Of a DNA stretch of 64,000 nt, positions 4,044 through 45,410 are shown piece after piece. The DNA is from a plasmid. Numbering within the stretch: the stretch's first letter is position 1; the number at the start of each line of letters is the position of its first letter. The position numbers were made by a program, and so were the translations under genes. The DNA lies in assembly GCF_056746865.1 (NCBI RefSeq), contig NZ_JBWKMP010000003.1. The stretch is one strand, 5' to 3'. The notes under the pieces are model-generated. The model worked only from the letters and a program-made list of their open reading frames with translations. It had not been told where the DNA came from and made no database searches.

Positions 4044-4061
4044 TATTCCTACTCGATTTAG

Positions 4062-6354: not shown

Positions 6355-6845
6355 TTAACGTGAAAGTGAAACGCCTTCATCCGGCGGCAAAACTCCCCGT
6401 TTACGCCACCGCCGGATCGGCGGCGATGGATTTTGTTGCTGTTGAAATAACGCCGGGTATCGATAGCAACGGCGCTATTTCCTCAAGCTGGTGGGTGCAT
6501 ACCGGCCTCGCTATGGCGATCCCTCCTGGCTGGTGTCTGAAACTTTATCCTCGTTCCGGATTGGGCTGCAAAAAGCATACGCGCCTGGCTAACTGCGTAG
6601 GAATTATCGACTCCGATTATCGCGGTGAAATCAAAGCAAAACTGATTACAGATCCCGGTGGTGAAGGCGTTTGCCTCAAGCCAGGAATGGCGGTCATGCA
6701 AGGCATTTTTGAGCGTGTTGAACCGGTATCGCTGGTAGAAGTTGATGAACTCGATGAAACAGAGCGAGGTGCTGGTGGCTTTGGTAGCACATCGGAAGAC
6801 CGCATTGAAATCAAGCGTACACCGCTTCAGTACGCAAAGTTTTAA
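6351..6845 (+). CDS. dut: dUTP pyrophosphatase (trimeric dUTPase)
   Basis: Motifs AGSAAMD, PRSGLG, GIIDSDYRGE and C-terminal RGAGGFGST. Confidence 0.9.
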   Translation: MINVKVKRLHPAAKLPVYATAGSAAMDFVAVEITPGIDSNGAISSSWWVHTGLAMAIPPGWCLKLYPRSGLGCKKHTRLANCVGIIDSDYRGEIKAKLITDPGGEGVCLKPGMAVMQGIFERVEPVSLVEVDELDETERGAGGFGSTSEDRIEIKRTPLQYAKF

Positions 6846-6859
6846 GTAGAGGAAAGGCT

Positions 6860-7510
6860 ATGAATAACATGCCAACGAAAGAGCTTTTTAAGTTCCTTCC
6901 CAAATACAAAGCTCACAAAAACGTTAGTGCATCGAAAATTAAAAATGTTGTTATTTTCGGAGTAACTGATGCCCCACTTTGGGGCTGCATCGAACTCGTT
7001 GAACCAAAAGGGGCAACAGTTTGTGTTGACGCAATGTTTTTACAAAAACACCGACCAAAAACTGGCGGGTATCTGATCGTTTATGAAAACGGTTATCTGT
7101 TCTATGCCCCGGAGAAACCATTTGAGGAATGCTATGGCCTGGTTAACGACGCCTCCAAAAATGGAACCACGGTCATCATTACGGATGACAACGGCGTGAT
7201 GATTAATCTTACTGGGAGCGTAACTATTTCTGCTGGTGGCATCACCACCCAGCAAGAAGAAATCGACCTTGAAGCAGCCGACTTCTCTGATGCGCTAATG
7301 TGGTTGAAGGAAGGCAAGAAAGTTGCCCGACGCGAGTGGAAAGGCGAAAAGCAATTCTGCTGGTTAGTTCTCGCTGGAAGCGTCAATTTACACGGCATTC
7401 ACGTTCCTTATGGTGACCATTTTGTATTGAAAGATGCACAAAATATGGACAGCGTTTGGTTGCCGTCTGTGGATGATTTACTGGCCTGTGACTGGTTTGT
7501 TGTGGAGTGA
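6860..7510 (+). CDS. protein with C-terminal DUF2829-like domain (the family that includes Thoeris anti-defence Tad2)
   Basis: 216 aa. The C-terminal 75 aa (DFSDALMWLKEGKKVARREWKGEKQF...VDDLLACDWFVVE) fit the DUF2829 pattern: aromatic-x-A-L-x-x-G-K-K-V-R-R-x-W near the start and D-L-L-A-x-D-W near the end. Confidence 0.55.
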   Translation: MNNMPTKELFKFLPKYKAHKNVSASKIKNVVIFGVTDAPLWGCIELVEPKGATVCVDAMFLQKHRPKTGGYLIVYENGYLFYAPEKPFEECYGLVNDASKNGTTVIITDDNGVMINLTGSVTISAGGITTQQEEIDLEAADFSDALMWLKEGKKVARREWKGEKQFCWLVLAGSVNLHGIHVPYGDHFVLKDAQNMDSVWLPSVDDLLACDWFVVE

Positions 7511-9417: not shown

Positions 9418-9446
9418 AAGCCCGCCTGGTTGAGCGGGCTTCTTTT
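9418..9446. terminator. bidirectional terminator between 8304-9410 and doc
   Basis: GAAGCCCGC (9418-9426) pairs with GCGGGCTTC (9434-9442), followed by TTTTC. Confidence 0.7.
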
Positions 9447-9826
9447 CAAATATTGGAACCATATAGTTCACGTAGTTTATCCGCTACTGAAGATACGGGG
9501 ATTTCACCAGTTGCAGCCCCCACCGCAAGTTCCACCAGCACGGGAGAATCATATACCTGTATACCGTTACGGCGTAGAAATAGCAGCGCACTGTTTAGCG
9601 CGGTACGCTTATTGGCATCATTGAATATATGCCCTCTCGCTGTAGCCACCAGGTAGGTGGCGGAGACTTCGAAAAGGTCGGTGATCTCTTCGTAGGCAAC
9701 TCTGGCCTGAACTCTCCCGATAATGGCCTCTGCCCTGCCCGGATCTGACATGCCAGGCAGGCCGCCGTAGCGGCTTATATTCGCATCATGAAGCGCAATA
9801 AGTTCTTCCGGTGATATATGCCTCAT
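9446..9826 (-). CDS. doc: Doc toxin (Fic-fold kinase) of the phd-doc addiction module
   Basis: 126 aa. [22 protein letters not shown]... with the Doc-type Fic motif [12 protein letters not shown]. Matches P1 Doc as I recall it, apart from the C-terminal ~25 aa. Confidence 0.93.
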
Positions 9827-10047
9827 TATCGGTTAACCAGTTCCTTGTTGGTGGAGTCCAGGGTGTCAAACAGGGATGCAAATTCAGCATCCAGCGCCGC
9901 TTTTTTGTAGGCTTCGAAAGTAGCCTTGCTGACAATTACTGCTGGCTCACGGCCTCTGCGGGTGATTTCAACCTCTTCCCCGGCTTCAACATTGTTGAGC
10001 ACTTCAGAAAGGTTGCCACGCGCGGTACGGAAGTTAATGGATTGCAT
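9826..10047 (-). CDS. phd: Phd antitoxin
   Basis: 73 aa from [40 protein letters not shown]..., as in P1 Phd. The stop overlaps the doc start. Confidence 0.93.
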
Positions 10048-10119: not shown

Positions 10120-10509
10120 TTAAATAACCGGACAATCATCAAATTCCCCACTTCGGGCATCATTGATGACATGAGTGATCACACCAAAAACAGCATTACT
10201 GCCCGTGTATCCATCGTCATCTACTGGTAACGCCTCTTTCTTCCCGGTGCTTAAGTCCTCCAGGTGCTGGCGCGGATACTTCCTGTATCTCTTTATGCGA
10301 TATTCACCCTCCATAGCGCACACAAGCAGAGAACCATCAACCGGAGTAAGCGAGGAATCAACCACCAGCAAAGCACCCTGCAATATTCCCTCACGGTGAT
10401 GGCTATCAGCTGCCCGCATGAAGTAGGTCGCTGAAGGATGTCTAATTATCTGCTGATCAAGAGAAATTCGGCTTTCAACATAATCCGCCGCAGGAGAAGG
10501 GAAGCCCAT
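10120..10509 (-). CDS. humD: UmuD'-like protein (P1 HumD homolog)
   Basis: 129 aa starting MGFPSPAADYVE, i.e. already at the position of cleaved UmuD'. S24 peptidase fold. A LexA box lies 19 nt upstream. Confidence 0.88.
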   Translation of the reverse strand: MGFPSPAADYVESRISLDQQIIRHPSATYFMRAADSHHREGILQGALLVVDSSLTPVDGSLLVCAMEGEYRIKRYRKYPRQHLEDLSTGKKEALPVDDDGYTGSNAVFGVITHVINDARSGEFDDCPVI

Positions 10510-19488: not shown

Positions 19489-19522
19489 ATGTTAGAAAAT
19501 TAAAATCAATATTCTAACACGG
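19489..19522. promoter_or_regulatory. inverted pair of operator-like sites
   Basis: ATGTTAGAAAAT (19489-19500) and ATTCTAACAC (19511-19520) face each other, 42 nt upstream of the 19447 start. Confidence 0.5.
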
Positions 19523-20767: not shown

Positions 20768-21039
20768 TTTGTTTTCTCCTGTCTGAACATCACTATCATC
20801 AGGTCGCCTTTTGTCGCTATCCTGGCTGTTGTACCTGGTTCAATGCGGCTAAGCTCAAATGCGTCATAGAACGCTTCTAATGCCTTCTGGCGTAGTTCCT
20901 GTTTGCGCCGTTTTTTCCACTGTTTTAGGAAAATGGAACCCAGCCATCGCCATGTACGGGACATGATGTAAAGCCAACCGAGAAGTGCCAGACCGGTATT
21001 TAGGAGCGTATCGATCGTTATTGTCGTGTCGATATTCAC
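20764..21039 (-). CDS. small membrane protein
   Basis: 91 aa. GTG start in a GTGA overlap. TM segment LLNTGLALLGWLYIM. Confidence 0.55.
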   Translation of the reverse strand: MNIDTTITIDTLLNTGLALLGWLYIMSRTWRWLGSIFLKQWKKRRKQELRQKALEAFYDAFELSRIEPGTTARIATKGDLMIVMFRQEKTK

Positions 21040-21752
21040 TGGCTGCCTCCTTTGCGAAGCTGGTCGGCGAACAAACGTACACTAGACGCTTCACTGCGTA
21101 GAAACTTAACGGCATAATCAAAACCACCTCGTTCTGCGTCGTCTGCTCCGTTGTCGAGGTTATCTGCGTACATCTCTACCCCCTGCGCACGTACTTCAGC
21201 CAGGAAAGCATCGGTGGCTGGGGTATCAACACGGATACTGTCGCGCAAGATGAAAAATGCATTGAGCATTCCAGTCTCTGGCACTTCATCCTGATGCTTC
21301 TCATACGCATCAAGAGCCTTCATCATCTCAGCTCCGAATGGTTGAGGGTGCACAGACTTCAGCTCCGCATTCTCCGCCGCCAGCACCGCGCGTTCGCTCT
21401 CCAGTTCTGTAATGCGCCGTCTTGCAGCATCCAGTTCAATCGACAATTTTCCCAACTGCTCTTTATGCTTCTTGTATTCCTGATATGCGTGCCAAGACTG
21501 ACCTTTGCGCACACTATCCGTGATATCAGTAATCTGTTCTGGTGTTAGCGTGGTCAGTGGCTGTGCTGGGAAAATCAGCACTTTCCCAGCATCCCAATCA
21601 AAACCCACCTGAATTGACTGAACCTCAACTGATGGTGTTGAACCGATGCGACCAGGCGAATGAACAACGATCGTTACATCCATATCGCGACGATGGCTGT
21701 GGTTGTTGGACAAAATACGATTCACCAACTCCGAGAATTTGGAAAATTTCAT
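21036..21752 (-). CDS. mosaic protein with Ea22-like C-terminal modules
   Basis: 238 aa from MKFSKF. Contains [16 protein letters not shown] and the tail [11 protein letters not shown]. Confidence 0.6.
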
Positions 21753-22072
21753 GCTGATTCCCTTTGCTCTTCCTGGATAATGTTGTTGCAATCTTTCACG
21801 CACTCGTTGCAGATGAAAACGTTGTCCCCGGCAATTAACTTTTTAACGGTGTGCTGGGATTTGTTGCAGAAGCTGCAATAAAGCGTTGGACTGGCTGATA
21901 TGGATGGTGCGCCAGATGTCAGCCGCGCGATGTCGTTCTTGCGACGCAATATCACACGGCTGCACTCGACCAGCATCTCCGGGGATATATCCTCCTCCGT
22001 GGCGAGCGCCTCCAGACGTTCGAGCAAGCGAAATACTTTTTCCTGGGTGATTGCAGAATGCGATGTGGTCAT
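21749..22072 (-). CDS. small protein with a ClpX-type C4 zinc-finger domain
   Basis: 107 aa. [39 protein letters not shown] aligns with the E. coli ClpX N-domain [39 protein letters not shown]. Confidence 0.65.
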
Positions 22073-22073
22073 C

Positions 22074-22724
22074 TCACTCTCCTTTGATGCGAATGCCAGC
22101 GGCACGGGAGTCATTCCATCGCTTTACTTCTTCACGAATTACGTCAATGCATTCTTTCGAATCCATTAGGTAATCTTCATCAAAAAGCCTTTCCTGTTCG
22201 TTTTCTATCGCAACAATGATTGCTTCAACTAACTTTTGTGCCTGAGAACCACTTTCTAACTCTGCAATGCGCTTCTCTGCGGCTTCCAGCTTCTCGCGCA
22301 TATCGTCAACGTACTCGACCAGAGATCCGCCAGCAGGAATTTCGCACTCCTCGACCAGTTGGAAGTAGATATCAGCTGCGGCCCGTGTGTTGCTATGCCT
22401 AGCGTCGCCCATCTCACCTTCACGAAGAGCATCGCGTTCGGCGGTAAGATTGGCTATTTTGCTGTCTTTGCCTTCAAGCTCAACGCGCAGCTTCCCTACC
22501 GTTAGCGCAATATCCTCGTTCTCCTGGTCGCGGCGTTTTATGTATTGCTGGTTTCTTTCCCGTTCATCCAGCAGCGCCAGCACAATGTGTGGCGTTATCA
22601 AGGACTCAAATTCGGCAACAGCTTGCTCACCTCGCTTGTAATTCTTAATCCCACCTAAATCTTTCGCGTTCTGTGCCGCCTCACGCAGCGCCAGTGTGTC
22701 GATGTCGATGTCGATGTTGCTCAT
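22074..22724 (-). CDS. Ead/Ea22-like mosaic protein
   Basis: 216 aa from [21 protein letters not shown]. Carries the same [36 protein letters not shown] module as 15160-15912. Tail AAGIRIKGE*. Confidence 0.65.
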
Positions 22725-22954
22725 TGTGCCTCCTCGATTTCGTCCCATTCCACCCAGGCATTCTCTCCATCAGCATCGATTTCACCTTTGTGACCGCATT
22801 TGGAACAAACGGCCTCATCACCCGCCCACAAAGAATCTTTGGTTACCGACCATCCTGTTACCCTGGCTTTGCCGTGCTGGCACCTAGGGCAATCATCAAG
22901 CCATTCGACTTCGACCGTTGAAGGACCAAATCCATGTTCAGTTCGGATGCTCAT
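22721..22954 (-). CDS. small zinc-ribbon protein
   Basis: 77 aa. CPRC...CSKCGH. Confidence 0.55.
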   Translation of the reverse strand: MSIRTEHGFGPSTVEVEWLDDCPRCQHGKARVTGWSVTKDSLWAGDEAVCSKCGHKGEIDADGENAWVEWDEIEEAQ

Positions 22955-23454
22955 GACTGAACTCCTTTGCGAATCTGTTCCGCCCATTCTTCAAGGGATT
23001 TCTCCGCATATTCACCGGACAGGCCATCAATCGGATGCGGTTCATTAGCCAACTCTTCTTTCGCTGACAAAATCATGCGTGTAACGTCGAAAACTTCACG
23101 CAAAGACTTATTGATAAATCCGTGATTGAACGCAGCAGCAAGACGGCTTGCGGTGTAGTTAATCCCCTCGTTGCGTGCCTCCGCACGTATTTCAGCCAGG
23201 AAAGCGTCGGTGGCTGACATATTTCCTGTTGCCTTCATGGCCTTCAAAATAACCAGAACGCCATCTTGCCCAACCAACTCGGAGATAATCTCAGTGTTGT
23301 CGCCAACAACCTCACAGAATGCCTGAACAGCTTTACGAGCAAGTGCATTCTCCGCCGCCAGCGCCGCGCGCTCTTTCTCAAGTCGGGAAATTTCCGTTAC
23401 ATACTCAGCGTTACGCTCTGCCAGTTGTGCGGGCGTTAAACCTTCAGACTTCAT
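22951..23454 (-). CDS. Ead/Ea22-like mosaic protein
   Basis: 167 aa. [18 protein letters not shown], tail WAEQIRKGVQS*. Confidence 0.6.
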   Translation of the reverse strand: MKSEGLTPAQLAERNAEYVTEISRLEKERAALAAENALARKAVQAFCEVVGDNTEIISELVGQDGVLVILKAMKATGNMSATDAFLAEIRAEARNEGINYTASRLAAAFNHGFINKSLREVFDVTRMILSAKEELANEPHPIDGLSGEYAEKSLEEWAEQIRKGVQS

Positions 23455-23761: not shown

Positions 23762-24369
23762 GCAGAACTCCTTCTAACCAAAAGAACGCCATCTTCAGAA
23801 ACAACGTTGCAGGACTTCAGGTAATTCATTGCCTCTTTCGGTAATGGATTCTTTGGATCGGCGCTTGCCAGGGATTTCGATAACCTCATGATAAATTTGA
23901 TCATTACCTTCTGACGGAGCTTGTGCTCATGGGATGCAGACAGGTAATAGGAAATGGTATGGGCTAAACGCTCACGAAGCTGTTCTGTGCCGTGATATAC
24001 AGCAGCGATATCACGCAGTGCATTGACCAGTTCCCGGTAAATATGCGGAGCAACCTGGCATTCAATGTTGGTTGGTGACTCATAAATTACATTCAGCCCC
24101 AGCTTTTGAGCCAGCTCGTGCTCTGCACGAGCGCCAACTGATTCCTCCCACCCCTTGAGCAAATAGACCGCATTAGCCGAACGCACCATTGCAAGGCAAA
24201 TATCCATGTATTCGCTCTGGCAGAGGCCAGCAGGTAACAGCGCCGGATTCAGAACAATATGCCCTACCTCCATCAGCTCTTTTGCTTTCGAAAAAAACGC
24301 TGTGCGGTTGTAGTCGGGATAACCAGTCATCGGACCCGCGATGTAAATTTTCATAATGCGTTTTGACAT
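23758..24369 (-). CDS. DUF4406-like (nucleoside deoxyribosyltransferase-fold) protein with an extra C-terminal module
   Basis: 203 aa from MSKRIMKIYIAGPMTGYPDYNRTAF...LKGWEESVGARAEHELAQKLG. The C-terminal half is homologous to part of 11199-11834. Confidence 0.6.
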   Translation of the reverse strand: MSKRIMKIYIAGPMTGYPDYNRTAFFSKAKELMEVGHIVLNPALLPAGLCQSEYMDICLAMVRSANAVYLLKGWEESVGARAEHELAQKLGLNVIYESPTNIECQVAPHIYRELVNALRDIAAVYHGTEQLRERLAHTISYYLSASHEHKLRQKVMIKFIMRLSKSLASADPKNPLPKEAMNYLKSCNVVSEDGVLLVRRSSA

Positions 24370-24521
24370 CAAAGTTTCCCCAGGAACGTTACGCAAAAGT
24401 TAATGAGAGCAAAGAGTTCAATGCCCAGCTCAAACAACGCCAGGACAGTGAAAAACAGGGCATATAGCAACCCAATTTCTGTACCGGATTGCTGGTGGAT
24501 TGCACTTATTGCGACAAGCAT
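24369..24521 (-). CDS. small membrane protein (50 aa, below the ORF-track cutoff)
   Basis: AGGAGG Shine-Dalgarno 5 nt before the ATG at 24521. The stop overlaps the next ATG. First gene of the operon leaving the 24565-24596 operator. Confidence 0.4.
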   Translation of the reverse strand: MLVAISAIHQQSGTEIGLLYALFFTVLALFELGIELFALINFCVTFLGKL

Positions 24522-24564
24522 CATGACCTCCTGATATAGCGTCTGAAAAAAGTATCTTCATTTT

Positions 24565-24596
24565 GTGTTAGAAAATCAATTTTGATTTTCTAACAC
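24565..24596. promoter_or_regulatory. palindromic double operator between divergent operons
   Basis: GTGTTAGAAAATCAA-TT-TTGATTTTCTAACAC: perfect 15-bp inverted arms. Lies between the minus-strand early operon and ref. Confidence 0.6.
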
Positions 24597-35910: not shown

Positions 35911-35957
35911 GCAAAACTGTGTTAGATAATTGAGTTTTATTTTCTAACACAGTTTTG
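35911..35957. promoter_or_regulatory. inverted pair of operator-like sites within a 16-bp-arm palindrome
   Basis: GCAAAACTGTGTTAGA...TCTAACACAGTTTTGC. Lies just upstream of rdgC. Confidence 0.55.
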
Positions 35958-45330: not shown

Positions 45331-45410
45331 TGTTCTAATGTTTTATGTTAGAAAATTAAGATTAAACCATACTAACACAAGATTGTTAACGAAAATTATT
45401 TTTCTAATGC
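45331..45410. promoter_or_regulatory. cluster of four operator-like sites in a divergent control region
   Basis: TGTTCTAATG (45331-45340), ATGTTAGAAAAT (45345-45356), TACTAACACA (45369-45378), TTTTTCTAAT (45399-45408). Confidence 0.5.

Follow-up and report, generated by a model that had tools for sequence, protein, structure and literature searches.

A 64,000-nucleotide stretch of plasmid DNA (NCBI RefSeq assembly GCF_056746865.1, contig NZ_JBWKMP010000003.1), hereafter called the window, was analysed around a small gene of its minus strand (21749-22072; positions are those of the window unless a locus is named) that encodes a stand-alone ClpX-type zinc-finger protein of 107 amino acids (aa). 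The window belongs to a D6-like, P1-related phage-plasmid of Escherichia coli, and the protein falls into subfamily A of PHROG 6797, a small family from enterobacteria. Its open reading frame (ORF) runs from an ATG at 22072-22070 to a TGA at 21751-21749. A Shine-Dalgarno sequence (AAGGAG, 22079-22084, minus strand), read from the sequence, lies inside the last codons (I-K-G-E-stop) of the upstream gene. The latter (22074-22748, minus strand) codes for an Ead/Ea22-like coiled-coil protein of 224 aa (Pfam PF13935, E-value 2.8e-15) and ends with a TGA at 22074-22076, 1 base ahead of the zinc-finger ATG. On the downstream side, a gene for a 238-aa protein (21036-21752, minus strand), whose N-terminal part corresponds to PHROG 6026 and is followed by a coiled coil, has an ATG that overlaps the zinc-finger stop codon (ATGA). 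Because of this 1-base upstream gap and this downstream overlap, the zinc-finger gene was considered as one member of a tightly packed leftward operon. A longer frame opening at 22114 was discarded, as it overlaps the upstream gene and homologues begin with MTTSHSA behind unrelated upstream genes; the 107-aa form is also the one annotated by RefSeq in a plasmid 99 % identical across the 3-kb region.

The protein consists of three parts, i.e. a predicted amphipathic helical hairpin (residues 1-52; 21917-22072, minus strand), which is a probable oligomerisation stalk, a flexible linker rich in Ser, Ala and Pro (residues 53-63; 21884-21916, minus strand), whose length and sequence differ between subfamilies, and a ClpX-type C4 zinc-binding domain (ZBD; residues 64-102; 21767-21883, minus strand) with Cys codons at 21875-21877, 21866-21868, 21809-21811 and 21800-21802. 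Two AlphaFold2 runs agreed on helices at residues 10-26 and 31-52, a low-confidence linker (predicted local distance difference test, pLDDT, of 57), a beta-hairpin and a C-terminal helix. With a deeper alignment the ZBD reached a pLDDT of 83-89, the predicted template modelling score (pTM) of the AlphaFold2 model being still 0.37; given this value and the linker pLDDT, neither domain has a fixed position with respect to the other. The predicted ZBD associates the beta-hairpin and C-terminal helix of a treble-clef fold, and the model superimposes on the ClpX ZBD at 2.0 A over 38 residues.

The ClpX-like nature of the C-terminal part, which the original prediction had proposed together with the presence of all four cysteines, was borne out at the sequence level. 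Residues 65-101 matched Pfam family PF06689 (zf-C4_ClpX; profile positions 2-39 of 39, E-value 9.8e-18) with 64.2 bits, the curated gathering cut-off being 27 bits, and the best matches by sequence among solved structures were those of the E. coli ClpX ZBD (1OVX and 2DS5, E-value 1e-15). Over LYCSFC...QEE, 28/39 residues (~72 %) are identical between the window ZBD and E. coli ClpX. The putative zinc ligands C66, C69, C88 and C91 (CxxC-x18-CxxC), which are invariant in the family alignments, align with ClpX C14, C17, C36 and C39, and a fifth conserved cysteine is kept (C95, corresponding to ClpX C43). The N-terminal part had been described as helical and unrelated to ClpX, in agreement with the predicted helices and with the Pfam scan of the window protein, in which PF06689 was the only family found and the hairpin matched none; fold searches with the hairpin returned generic helical hairpins and nothing else.

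This domain is indeed free-standing, as had been supposed, since the 107-aa protein lacks an AAA+ module. It scored 47.5 and 43.6 bits against the ClpX AAA+ unfoldase models TIGR00382 and NF003745, whose cut-offs are 359 and 371 respectively, and the match was confined to model positions 5-50. It does not resemble an SspB-type adaptor either: the C-terminus (...EEQRESA) is variable in the family and no SspB Pfam match was obtained. A DNA-binding zinc ribbon is disfavoured by the isoelectric point (pI) of the protein, which ranges from acidic to neutral across the family (5.3-8.6; about 5 for the ZBD), and by the absence of a helix-turn-helix. A role as defence-system component was rejected as well, PADLOC-DB giving no match (E-value ≤ 0.01) for the zinc-finger protein or for six operon neighbours.

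The window protein matched PHROG 6797 over its full length (E-value 1.5e-56, residues 1-106 on profile positions 1-106 of 107), and a word-indexed search retrieved about two dozen close clusters, those for which a source is named being all from Escherichia or Salmonella. When the N-terminal 63 residues alone were compared with 1.84 billion representative proteins, nine hits were obtained, the real ones having a ZBD too or being truncations; the hairpin was thus found in no other architecture among these proteins, and a scan of species-representative genomes with the N-terminal profile found nothing. In IMG/VR, the 76 loci retrieved (42 distinct sequences) all displayed both hairpin and ZBD. 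Judging from these sequence surveys, the stalk-linker-ZBD architecture is obligate in the family.

Two subfamilies were distinguished, subfamily A being the window type and subfamily B (MQHIDREKAQRLIERM...) containing gp19 of P88, an isolated phage of the P2-like type. Within subfamily A the window protein is unremarkable, and it does not differ in kind from D6 orf93 (positions 6632-6952 of locus L002), to which it is 83 % identical, or from the subfamily B representative P88 gp19 (positions 3432-3764 of L092), to which it is about 49 % identical over residues 28-102. Pairwise dN/dS ratios (non-synonymous over synonymous substitution rates) among eight homologues were mostly comprised between 0.15 and 0.45 in both domains, which are therefore under purifying selection; together with the conservation of the gene on three unrelated backbones (see below), this rules out a pseudogene or a chance ORF.

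Comparison with E. coli ClpX gave a mean of 27.7/39 identities for the ZBDs of subfamily A and of 30.8/39 for those of subfamily B, whereas ZBDs of the two subfamilies share 25.6/39 and their N-terminal domains are about 46-51 % identical. At the DNA level, the 152 nucleotides (nt) coding for the ZBD were compared by blastn with 5426 complete E. coli genomes. A match was found in 194 of them (~3.6 %), all the matches listed corresponding to annotated zinc-finger genes, and host clpX, which is present in all these genomes, was not detected at the threshold used. A recent capture of host clpX is accordingly ruled out, and as the ZBDs are nearer to ClpX than to each other while lacking detectable DNA similarity to clpX, the ClpX-like residues must have been maintained at the protein level. 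Several substitutions distinguishing the phage proteins from E. coli ClpX (G18N, R25K, Y34F and D37N) are ordinary variants in genuine ClpX of other bacteria.

The residues maintained include most of those of the ClpX ligand pocket. In ClpX, F16 and I46 form a hydrophobic side pocket for lambda O, trigger factor, SspB and RssB (PMC7804408), and L13 and H23 are needed for binding of the MqsA degron, H23 also serving for the SspB tail (PMC8808172; L12, L13 and H23 in the numbering of that study are L11, L12 and H22 in mature numbering). The window protein retains all four, as F68 (F16), I98 (I46), L64 (L13) and H74 (H23). The position of F16 is invariant in 66/66 family sequences, and that of I46 is occupied by I, V, L or F in 64/66. 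The likeness to the ClpX N-domain hence comprises the Pfam domain, the four cysteines, the 28/39 identities, the predicted fold and, in mature numbering, F16, I46, L12 and H22. The differences are the lack of an AAA+ module and of a ClpP-binding loop, the presence of an unrelated helical hairpin ahead of the ZBD and, in the window sub-clade, the replacements L11T, P31D and L42D (mature numbering).

The zinc-finger gene was found on three mutually unrelated kinds of temperate elements, i.e. D6-like phage-plasmids (88-95 kb), SSU5-like phage-plasmids (107-114 kb) and P2-like prophages, and in accessory regions only. Phage D6 and the window agree in the succession of their genes (ref, DUF4406, a mosaic of genes of the Ead/Ea22-like and other 'ea' types, ppp, pdcB, etc.); the 3 kb around the zinc-finger gene are covered to 97 %, at 99.1 % identity, by a 92.8-kb plasmid that is non-mobilizable. 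In PLSDB, 116 of the 123 matching records are non-mobilizable, and the full-length matches, among those listed, are all from Escherichia, Salmonella or Shigella. On P2-like prophages, the gene invariably lies in the interval from A, the replication gene, to Q, the portal gene, at the old/tin position, a hotspot of accessory and anti-phage genes (PMC9122126). A ParM/StbA-StbB partition cassette directly precedes it in 43/43 P2-like IMG/VR loci with sequence on the upstream side, the cassette being absent from two P2-like loci that are more divergent. Arrangements of the type 'StbA + Plasmid_stab_B + zf-C4_ClpX' are listed in the supplementary tables of Rousset et al., with no test, and these authors suggested that such partition cassettes allow P2-like prophages to persist as plasmids. 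As only a few cassette lineages account for the P2-like loci, the link with a plasmid lifestyle is suggestive, not established.

Part of this had already been made public. The name 'ClpX C4-type zinc finger protein' is carried by the RefSeq homologue WP_021551796, so that the domain observation as such is not new; with the domain present both in RefSeq annotation and in the published P2-hotspot table, its novelty had been overstated in the original prediction. By contrast, the label 'carboxylate--amine ligase' borne by D6 orf93, P88 gp19 and many GenBank and RefSeq entries of this 105-113-aa family is a propagated misannotation, these proteins having no ligase domain. Our literature search found no functional study of this zinc-finger family or of another phage-encoded free ClpX zinc finger, and no phage-derived inhibitor of ClpX; a paper on CxaR of S. 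aureus proved irrelevant. What is new here is the obligate architecture with its two subfamilies, the upkeep at the protein level of residues that resemble ClpX, those of the ligand pocket included, a distribution confined to accessory parts of phage-plasmids and to the P2 hotspot beside partition genes, a proposed decoy mechanism backed by the literature, and a negative result on a link with the antitoxin Phd.

We propose, with a probability of about 0.4, that the zinc-finger protein is a trans-acting mimic, or decoy, of the ClpX N-terminal domain. This is the best reading because the pocket residues are kept and because the ClpX ZBD supplied in trans inhibits adaptor-dependent degradation in vitro, as reported for the RssB-dependent breakdown of sigma-S by ClpXP in the presence of purified ZBD (PMC7226468). 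The original prediction had raised the idea of competition with the host domain, for which this work with the host ZBD offers a direct precedent in vitro, and the retention of F68, I98, L64 and H74 is consistent with it. The ClpX N-domain dimerises alone and is required for FtsZ, MuA and adaptor-delivered substrates, not for ssrA-tagged ones (PMC5415555), and it binds UmuD', lambda O, MuA, FtsZ and SspB (PMC8808172).

According to the decoy model, the helical hairpin would hold two or more chains together, and the ZBDs tethered in this way would form ClpX-like dimers showing the hydrophobic peptide-binding pocket of the host N-domain. The product of a temperate phage or plasmid-prophage could then rival ClpX in binding those proteins that have to dock on its N-domain, and would titrate adaptors (SspB, RssB, UmuD) as well as substrates that depend on this domain (lambda O, MuA, FtsZ, unfolded antitoxins of the MqsA type). 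The expected outcome would be a selective damping of the N-domain branch of ClpXP degradation and remodelling, direct degradation of the ssrA type going on. As relevant client one may think of HumD/UmuD', Phd, a protein involved in replication or maintenance, or one made by a competing phage.

Several features argue for this mechanism. The identity of the window ZBD with ClpX is far above what conservation of the fold requires, as illustrated by the anti-sigma factor CsfB of Bacillus, the only dimeric treble-clef zinc finger described besides ClpX (PMC5890618), which is ~20 % identical to ClpX. Purifying selection on both domains, the upkeep of ClpX-like residues at the protein level and the obligate stalk-linker-ZBD architecture, whose stalk can be replaced by an Ea22-like coiled coil, point the same way. 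The gene resides in accessory regions, including the P2 gpA-gpQ hotspot, where host-manipulating and exclusion genes are expected, and the acidic-to-neutral pI counts against DNA binding. Other features weigh against it. The position of ClpX L12 (PMC8808172 numbering) is occupied by Thr in 60/66 family members, including the window protein (T63), and the ClpX substitution L12S weakens MqsA-degron binding (PMC8808172). Subfamily A has D or E at the conserved ClpX P31 (D in the window protein), and the window sub-clade carries an Asp (D94) at ClpX L42, one helical turn from I46, where most relatives have V, A, L or I. Given D94 and T63, specificity may differ from that of the classic ClpX ligands. 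In addition, trans inhibition took an excess of ZBD in vitro, none of the candidate clients accompanies the zinc-finger gene on every one of the three backbones, and folds of the ZBD type may have unrelated functions, CsfB being an example. Moreover, it is by inference that we attribute to the protein zinc binding, oligomerisation, an interaction with adaptors or substrates, a decoy effect and a relevant client.

Comparison with known systems places such a decoy close to the anti-adaptors IraD, IraM and IraP, small proteins that selectively block one ClpXP branch while the protease itself is uninhibited, and competition of SspB and RssB for the ZBD docking site is documented (PMC7226468). IraD, IraM and IraP bind RssB through unrelated folds, whereas the inhibitor proposed here would be a copy of the docking domain. 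The zinc-finger protein, for which the Pfam scan gave PF06689 only, has no sequence relationship with these anti-adaptors. Phage modulators of host AAA+ proteases include T4 PinA and T7 Gp4.5, which act on Lon, and lambda RexB, which acts on ClpP-family degradation; here too a phage protein retunes host proteolysis, sometimes protecting antitoxins or phage regulators. Their folds and targets are unrelated, and none of them is known to mimic the substrate-recognition domain of the protease itself. CsfB shows that the fold can act as a free-standing small regulator, although through other surfaces, whereas the window protein combines ~72 % identity with the ClpX pocket. Finally, minimal ZBD-only phage proteins (e.g. 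the 65-aa 'Clp protease' of Pseudomonas phage PP9W2; PHROGs 12435, 5259 and 20296) are free-standing ClpX-like fingers as well, indicating that the theme recurs; they have no helical stalk and are about 39 % identical.

Among the other explanations, the one that survives best, unlikely as we consider it, is that the ZBD has been co-opted independently of ClpX, as a dimeric zinc-ribbon domain for peptide binding or oligomerisation serving a phage or plasmid partner. The candidate partners are the neighbouring Ead/Ea22-like protein, the 238-aa protein encoded downstream and the ParM/StbB partition machinery. An Ead/Ea22-like gene adjoins the zinc-finger gene on D6-like, SSU5-like and P2-like backbones; the translationally coupled 238-aa gene (ATGA) has a homologue at +324 to +407 nt in nearly all the subfamily A phage-plasmid loci of IMG/VR; and ParM/StbA-StbB precedes the gene in the P2-like loci mentioned above. 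The example of CsfB, a ClpX-like dimeric treble clef working in another pathway, and the derived residues L11T, P31D/E and L42D, which could mark a new specificity, point in the same direction. However, none of these neighbours is universal: locus L014 has none of the three, L013 lacks the 238-aa and ParM/StbB genes and has Ead/Ea22-like genes only, and the downstream gene of L010 is different. D6-like elements partition by another system, and the P2-like loci, being one or two cassette lineages, are not independent observations. Adjacency is weak evidence in any case because the ea-type region is a recombination mosaic, and a ClpX identity of 70-80 % with a retained pocket would not be needed for a mere role in dimerisation.

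A direct action on ClpX appears clearly less plausible. Here the phage ZBD would enter host N-domain dimers or dock elsewhere on ClpX, and would either poison N-domain function within the hexamer or bring clients via the stalk, as an adaptor-like bridge. Mixed dimers are conceivable, many ZBD positions being shared with ClpX (L12, I35, V40, C43 and I47, mature numbering), and ClpX N-domains dimerise independently of the AAA+ ring (PMC5415555; PMC5890618). On the other hand, tethering within the hexamer keeps these N-domains at a very high local concentration, and the phage protein has no SspB-like ClpX-binding (XB) tail of the LRVVK type, its C-terminus varying between ...QRESA, ...EGSA and ...DLRK. 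Heterodimerisation with host ClpX is also less likely given the probable oligomerisation stalk of the protein, which would favour homodimers.

The remaining explanation, in which the protein would exist to tune the ClpXP turnover of the element's own antitoxin, derives from the original prediction, which had linked the gene to a close homologue of P1 Phd. That homologue is present (9826-10047, minus strand; Pfam PF02604) and is 100 % identical to P1 Phd; it lies beside the gene for the toxin Doc (9446-9826, minus strand), 12 kb away from the zinc-finger gene. P1 Phd is a ClpXP substrate according to Lehnherr and Yarmolinsky (1995), as cited in PMC4963847, and since the antitoxin MqsA is recognised through the ClpX N-domain (PMC8808172), a toxin-antitoxin link is possible in principle. 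The co-occurrence of the two genes nevertheless fails both ways among deposited phages, in which they are found together only in D6: in P1, P7, SJ46, RCS47 and others Phd occurs in the absence of the zinc-finger gene, the reverse being the case in P88, PhiR44_2, PhiR41_1 and CMS-2020a, and no P2-like or SSU5-like phage carrying the zinc-finger gene matches the window Phd. Furthermore, a stabilised Phd would be expected to weaken post-segregational killing unless the decoy were very unstable, and a dependence of Phd degradation on the N-domain was not found documented in the accessible literature. A function specific to Phd is accordingly highly improbable. As a separate observation, it is a D6-like element, not P1, that carries this P1-identical Phd, and phage-plasmids related to P1 appear to swap the phd/doc addiction module (9446-10047, minus strand) as one unit.

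For the decoy model, another possible ClpXP client with a somewhat better co-occurrence than Phd is the HumD/UmuD'-like Peptidase_S24 protein encoded next to phd/doc (10120-10509, minus strand; Pfam PF00717, E-value 6.8e-9), which is 92 % identical to the S24 protein of SSU5-like phage-plasmids bearing the zinc-finger gene (positions 9752-10141 of L010). A direct interaction with the ClpX N-domain has been reported for UmuD', among other proteins (PMC8808172). As P1 has humD without the zinc-finger gene, HumD is a lead only.

With respect to expression, a perfect 14-bp inverted repeat (GTGTTAGAAAATCA-ATTT-TGATTTTCTAACAC, 24565-24596) in the divergent region between ref and the leftward zinc-finger operon is a candidate regulatory site. 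The palindromic motif (TGTTAGAAAAT...ATTTTCTAACA) recurs in the intergenic regions at 19489-19520, 35919-35950 and 45345-45380, with half-sites near 4059, 5455 and 25214, giving 18 matches with up to 3 mismatches as compared with 6.4 ± 2.6 in shuffled sequences. It does not match the -22 box of P1 late promoters, an assignment that was rejected, and a search for the P1 C1 operator upstream of the zinc-finger operon gave zero matches. The motif is probably a D6-type regulatory site, i.e. a repressor operator or a late-promoter element, the assignment being uncertain. In P2-like phages, the position of the zinc-finger gene right after parM-stbB, on the same strand, suggests that it is expressed in the lysogen.

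Other features of these regions were recorded. The leftward operon starts with an ORF coding for a strongly hydrophobic polypeptide of 51 aa (24369-24524, minus strand), possibly a small membrane protein, which is annotated as hypothetical in a related plasmid and in D6 (orf88). Many of the genes in the mosaic operon end in ...IKGE, ...KGGSQ, ...KGVQS or ...GGNQ (22074-22085, 21036-21050 and 22951-22965 in the window, with equivalents in L003, L010 and L013), tails that stem from translation of the next gene's Shine-Dalgarno sequence (AAAGGAG). Because they are a coding readout of that sequence, the idea that the tails of the neighbours (…GIRIKGE, …KGG.Q) are SspB XB-like ClpX-binding tails was dropped; the conserved Shine-Dalgarno junctions may be recombination linkers between modules. 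Subfamily B cassettes of P2-like phages comprise, in this order, ParM, StbB, the zinc-finger protein, a 118-aa protein judged by eye to be ASCH-like (positions 5333-5689 of L053; P88 gp20), and small ORFs. In P88, the 63-nt gap between stbB and the zinc-finger gene contains a GC-rich hairpin with a 10-bp stem (CATCAGGGCG-GATG-CGCCCTGATG, positions 3374-3397 of L092); it is not an obvious terminator, having no T-tract on the coding strand, and could be an RNA processing or stability element.

Rearranged forms of the genes were also encountered. In P0022 and P0024, which are rare chimeras, an Ea22-like coiled coil is joined to the ZBD in place of the stalk. In P0001, P0003, P0008, P0017, L041, L042 and L045, the N-terminus of a neighbouring 167-aa protein (MKSEGLTPAQLAERNAE...) is grafted onto the zinc-finger protein, and in L033 and L050 a frameshift has fused the zinc-finger gene to the 238-aa gene that lies downstream. 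Such chimeras imply that modules recombine freely in the region, seemingly at shared coiled-coil motifs such as AAENAxLK, and their composition suggests that the stalk may be a generic helical, oligomerising scaffold displaying ZBDs.

Were the decoy model to fail, the gene would be one more small accessory gene in a mosaic region. In its general form, the model would mean that enterobacterial temperate phages and plasmid-prophages carry a dedicated mimic of the ClpX docking domain, which switches off adaptor- and N-domain-dependent ClpXP while sparing bulk ssrA control, a tentative view that we hold to be somewhat doubtful. If true, the branch affected would include sigma-S/RssB, UmuD-UmuD'/HumD, MuA, lambda O and antitoxins recognised by the N-domain, and the protein would be the first case of a viral inhibitor that acts on the substrate selection of an AAA+ protease through domain mimicry, as well as a natural and highly selective inhibitor of the ClpXP branch behind SOS mutagenesis, the general stress response, Mu and lambda development, cell division and some antitoxins. 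It would also provide a simple genetic tool separating N-domain-dependent from direct ClpXP degradation. Depending on the client, the plasmid-prophage state would be stabilised, HumD-based SOS mutagenesis or host stress resistance would be raised, or superinfecting phages needing the ClpX N-domain, such as Mu, would be excluded. Phages would thus retune host proteolysis by copying the protease's own docking domain, and since the gene is carried by common phage-plasmids and P2-like prophages of E. coli, Salmonella and Shigella, it could bear on prophage maintenance and host phenotypes.

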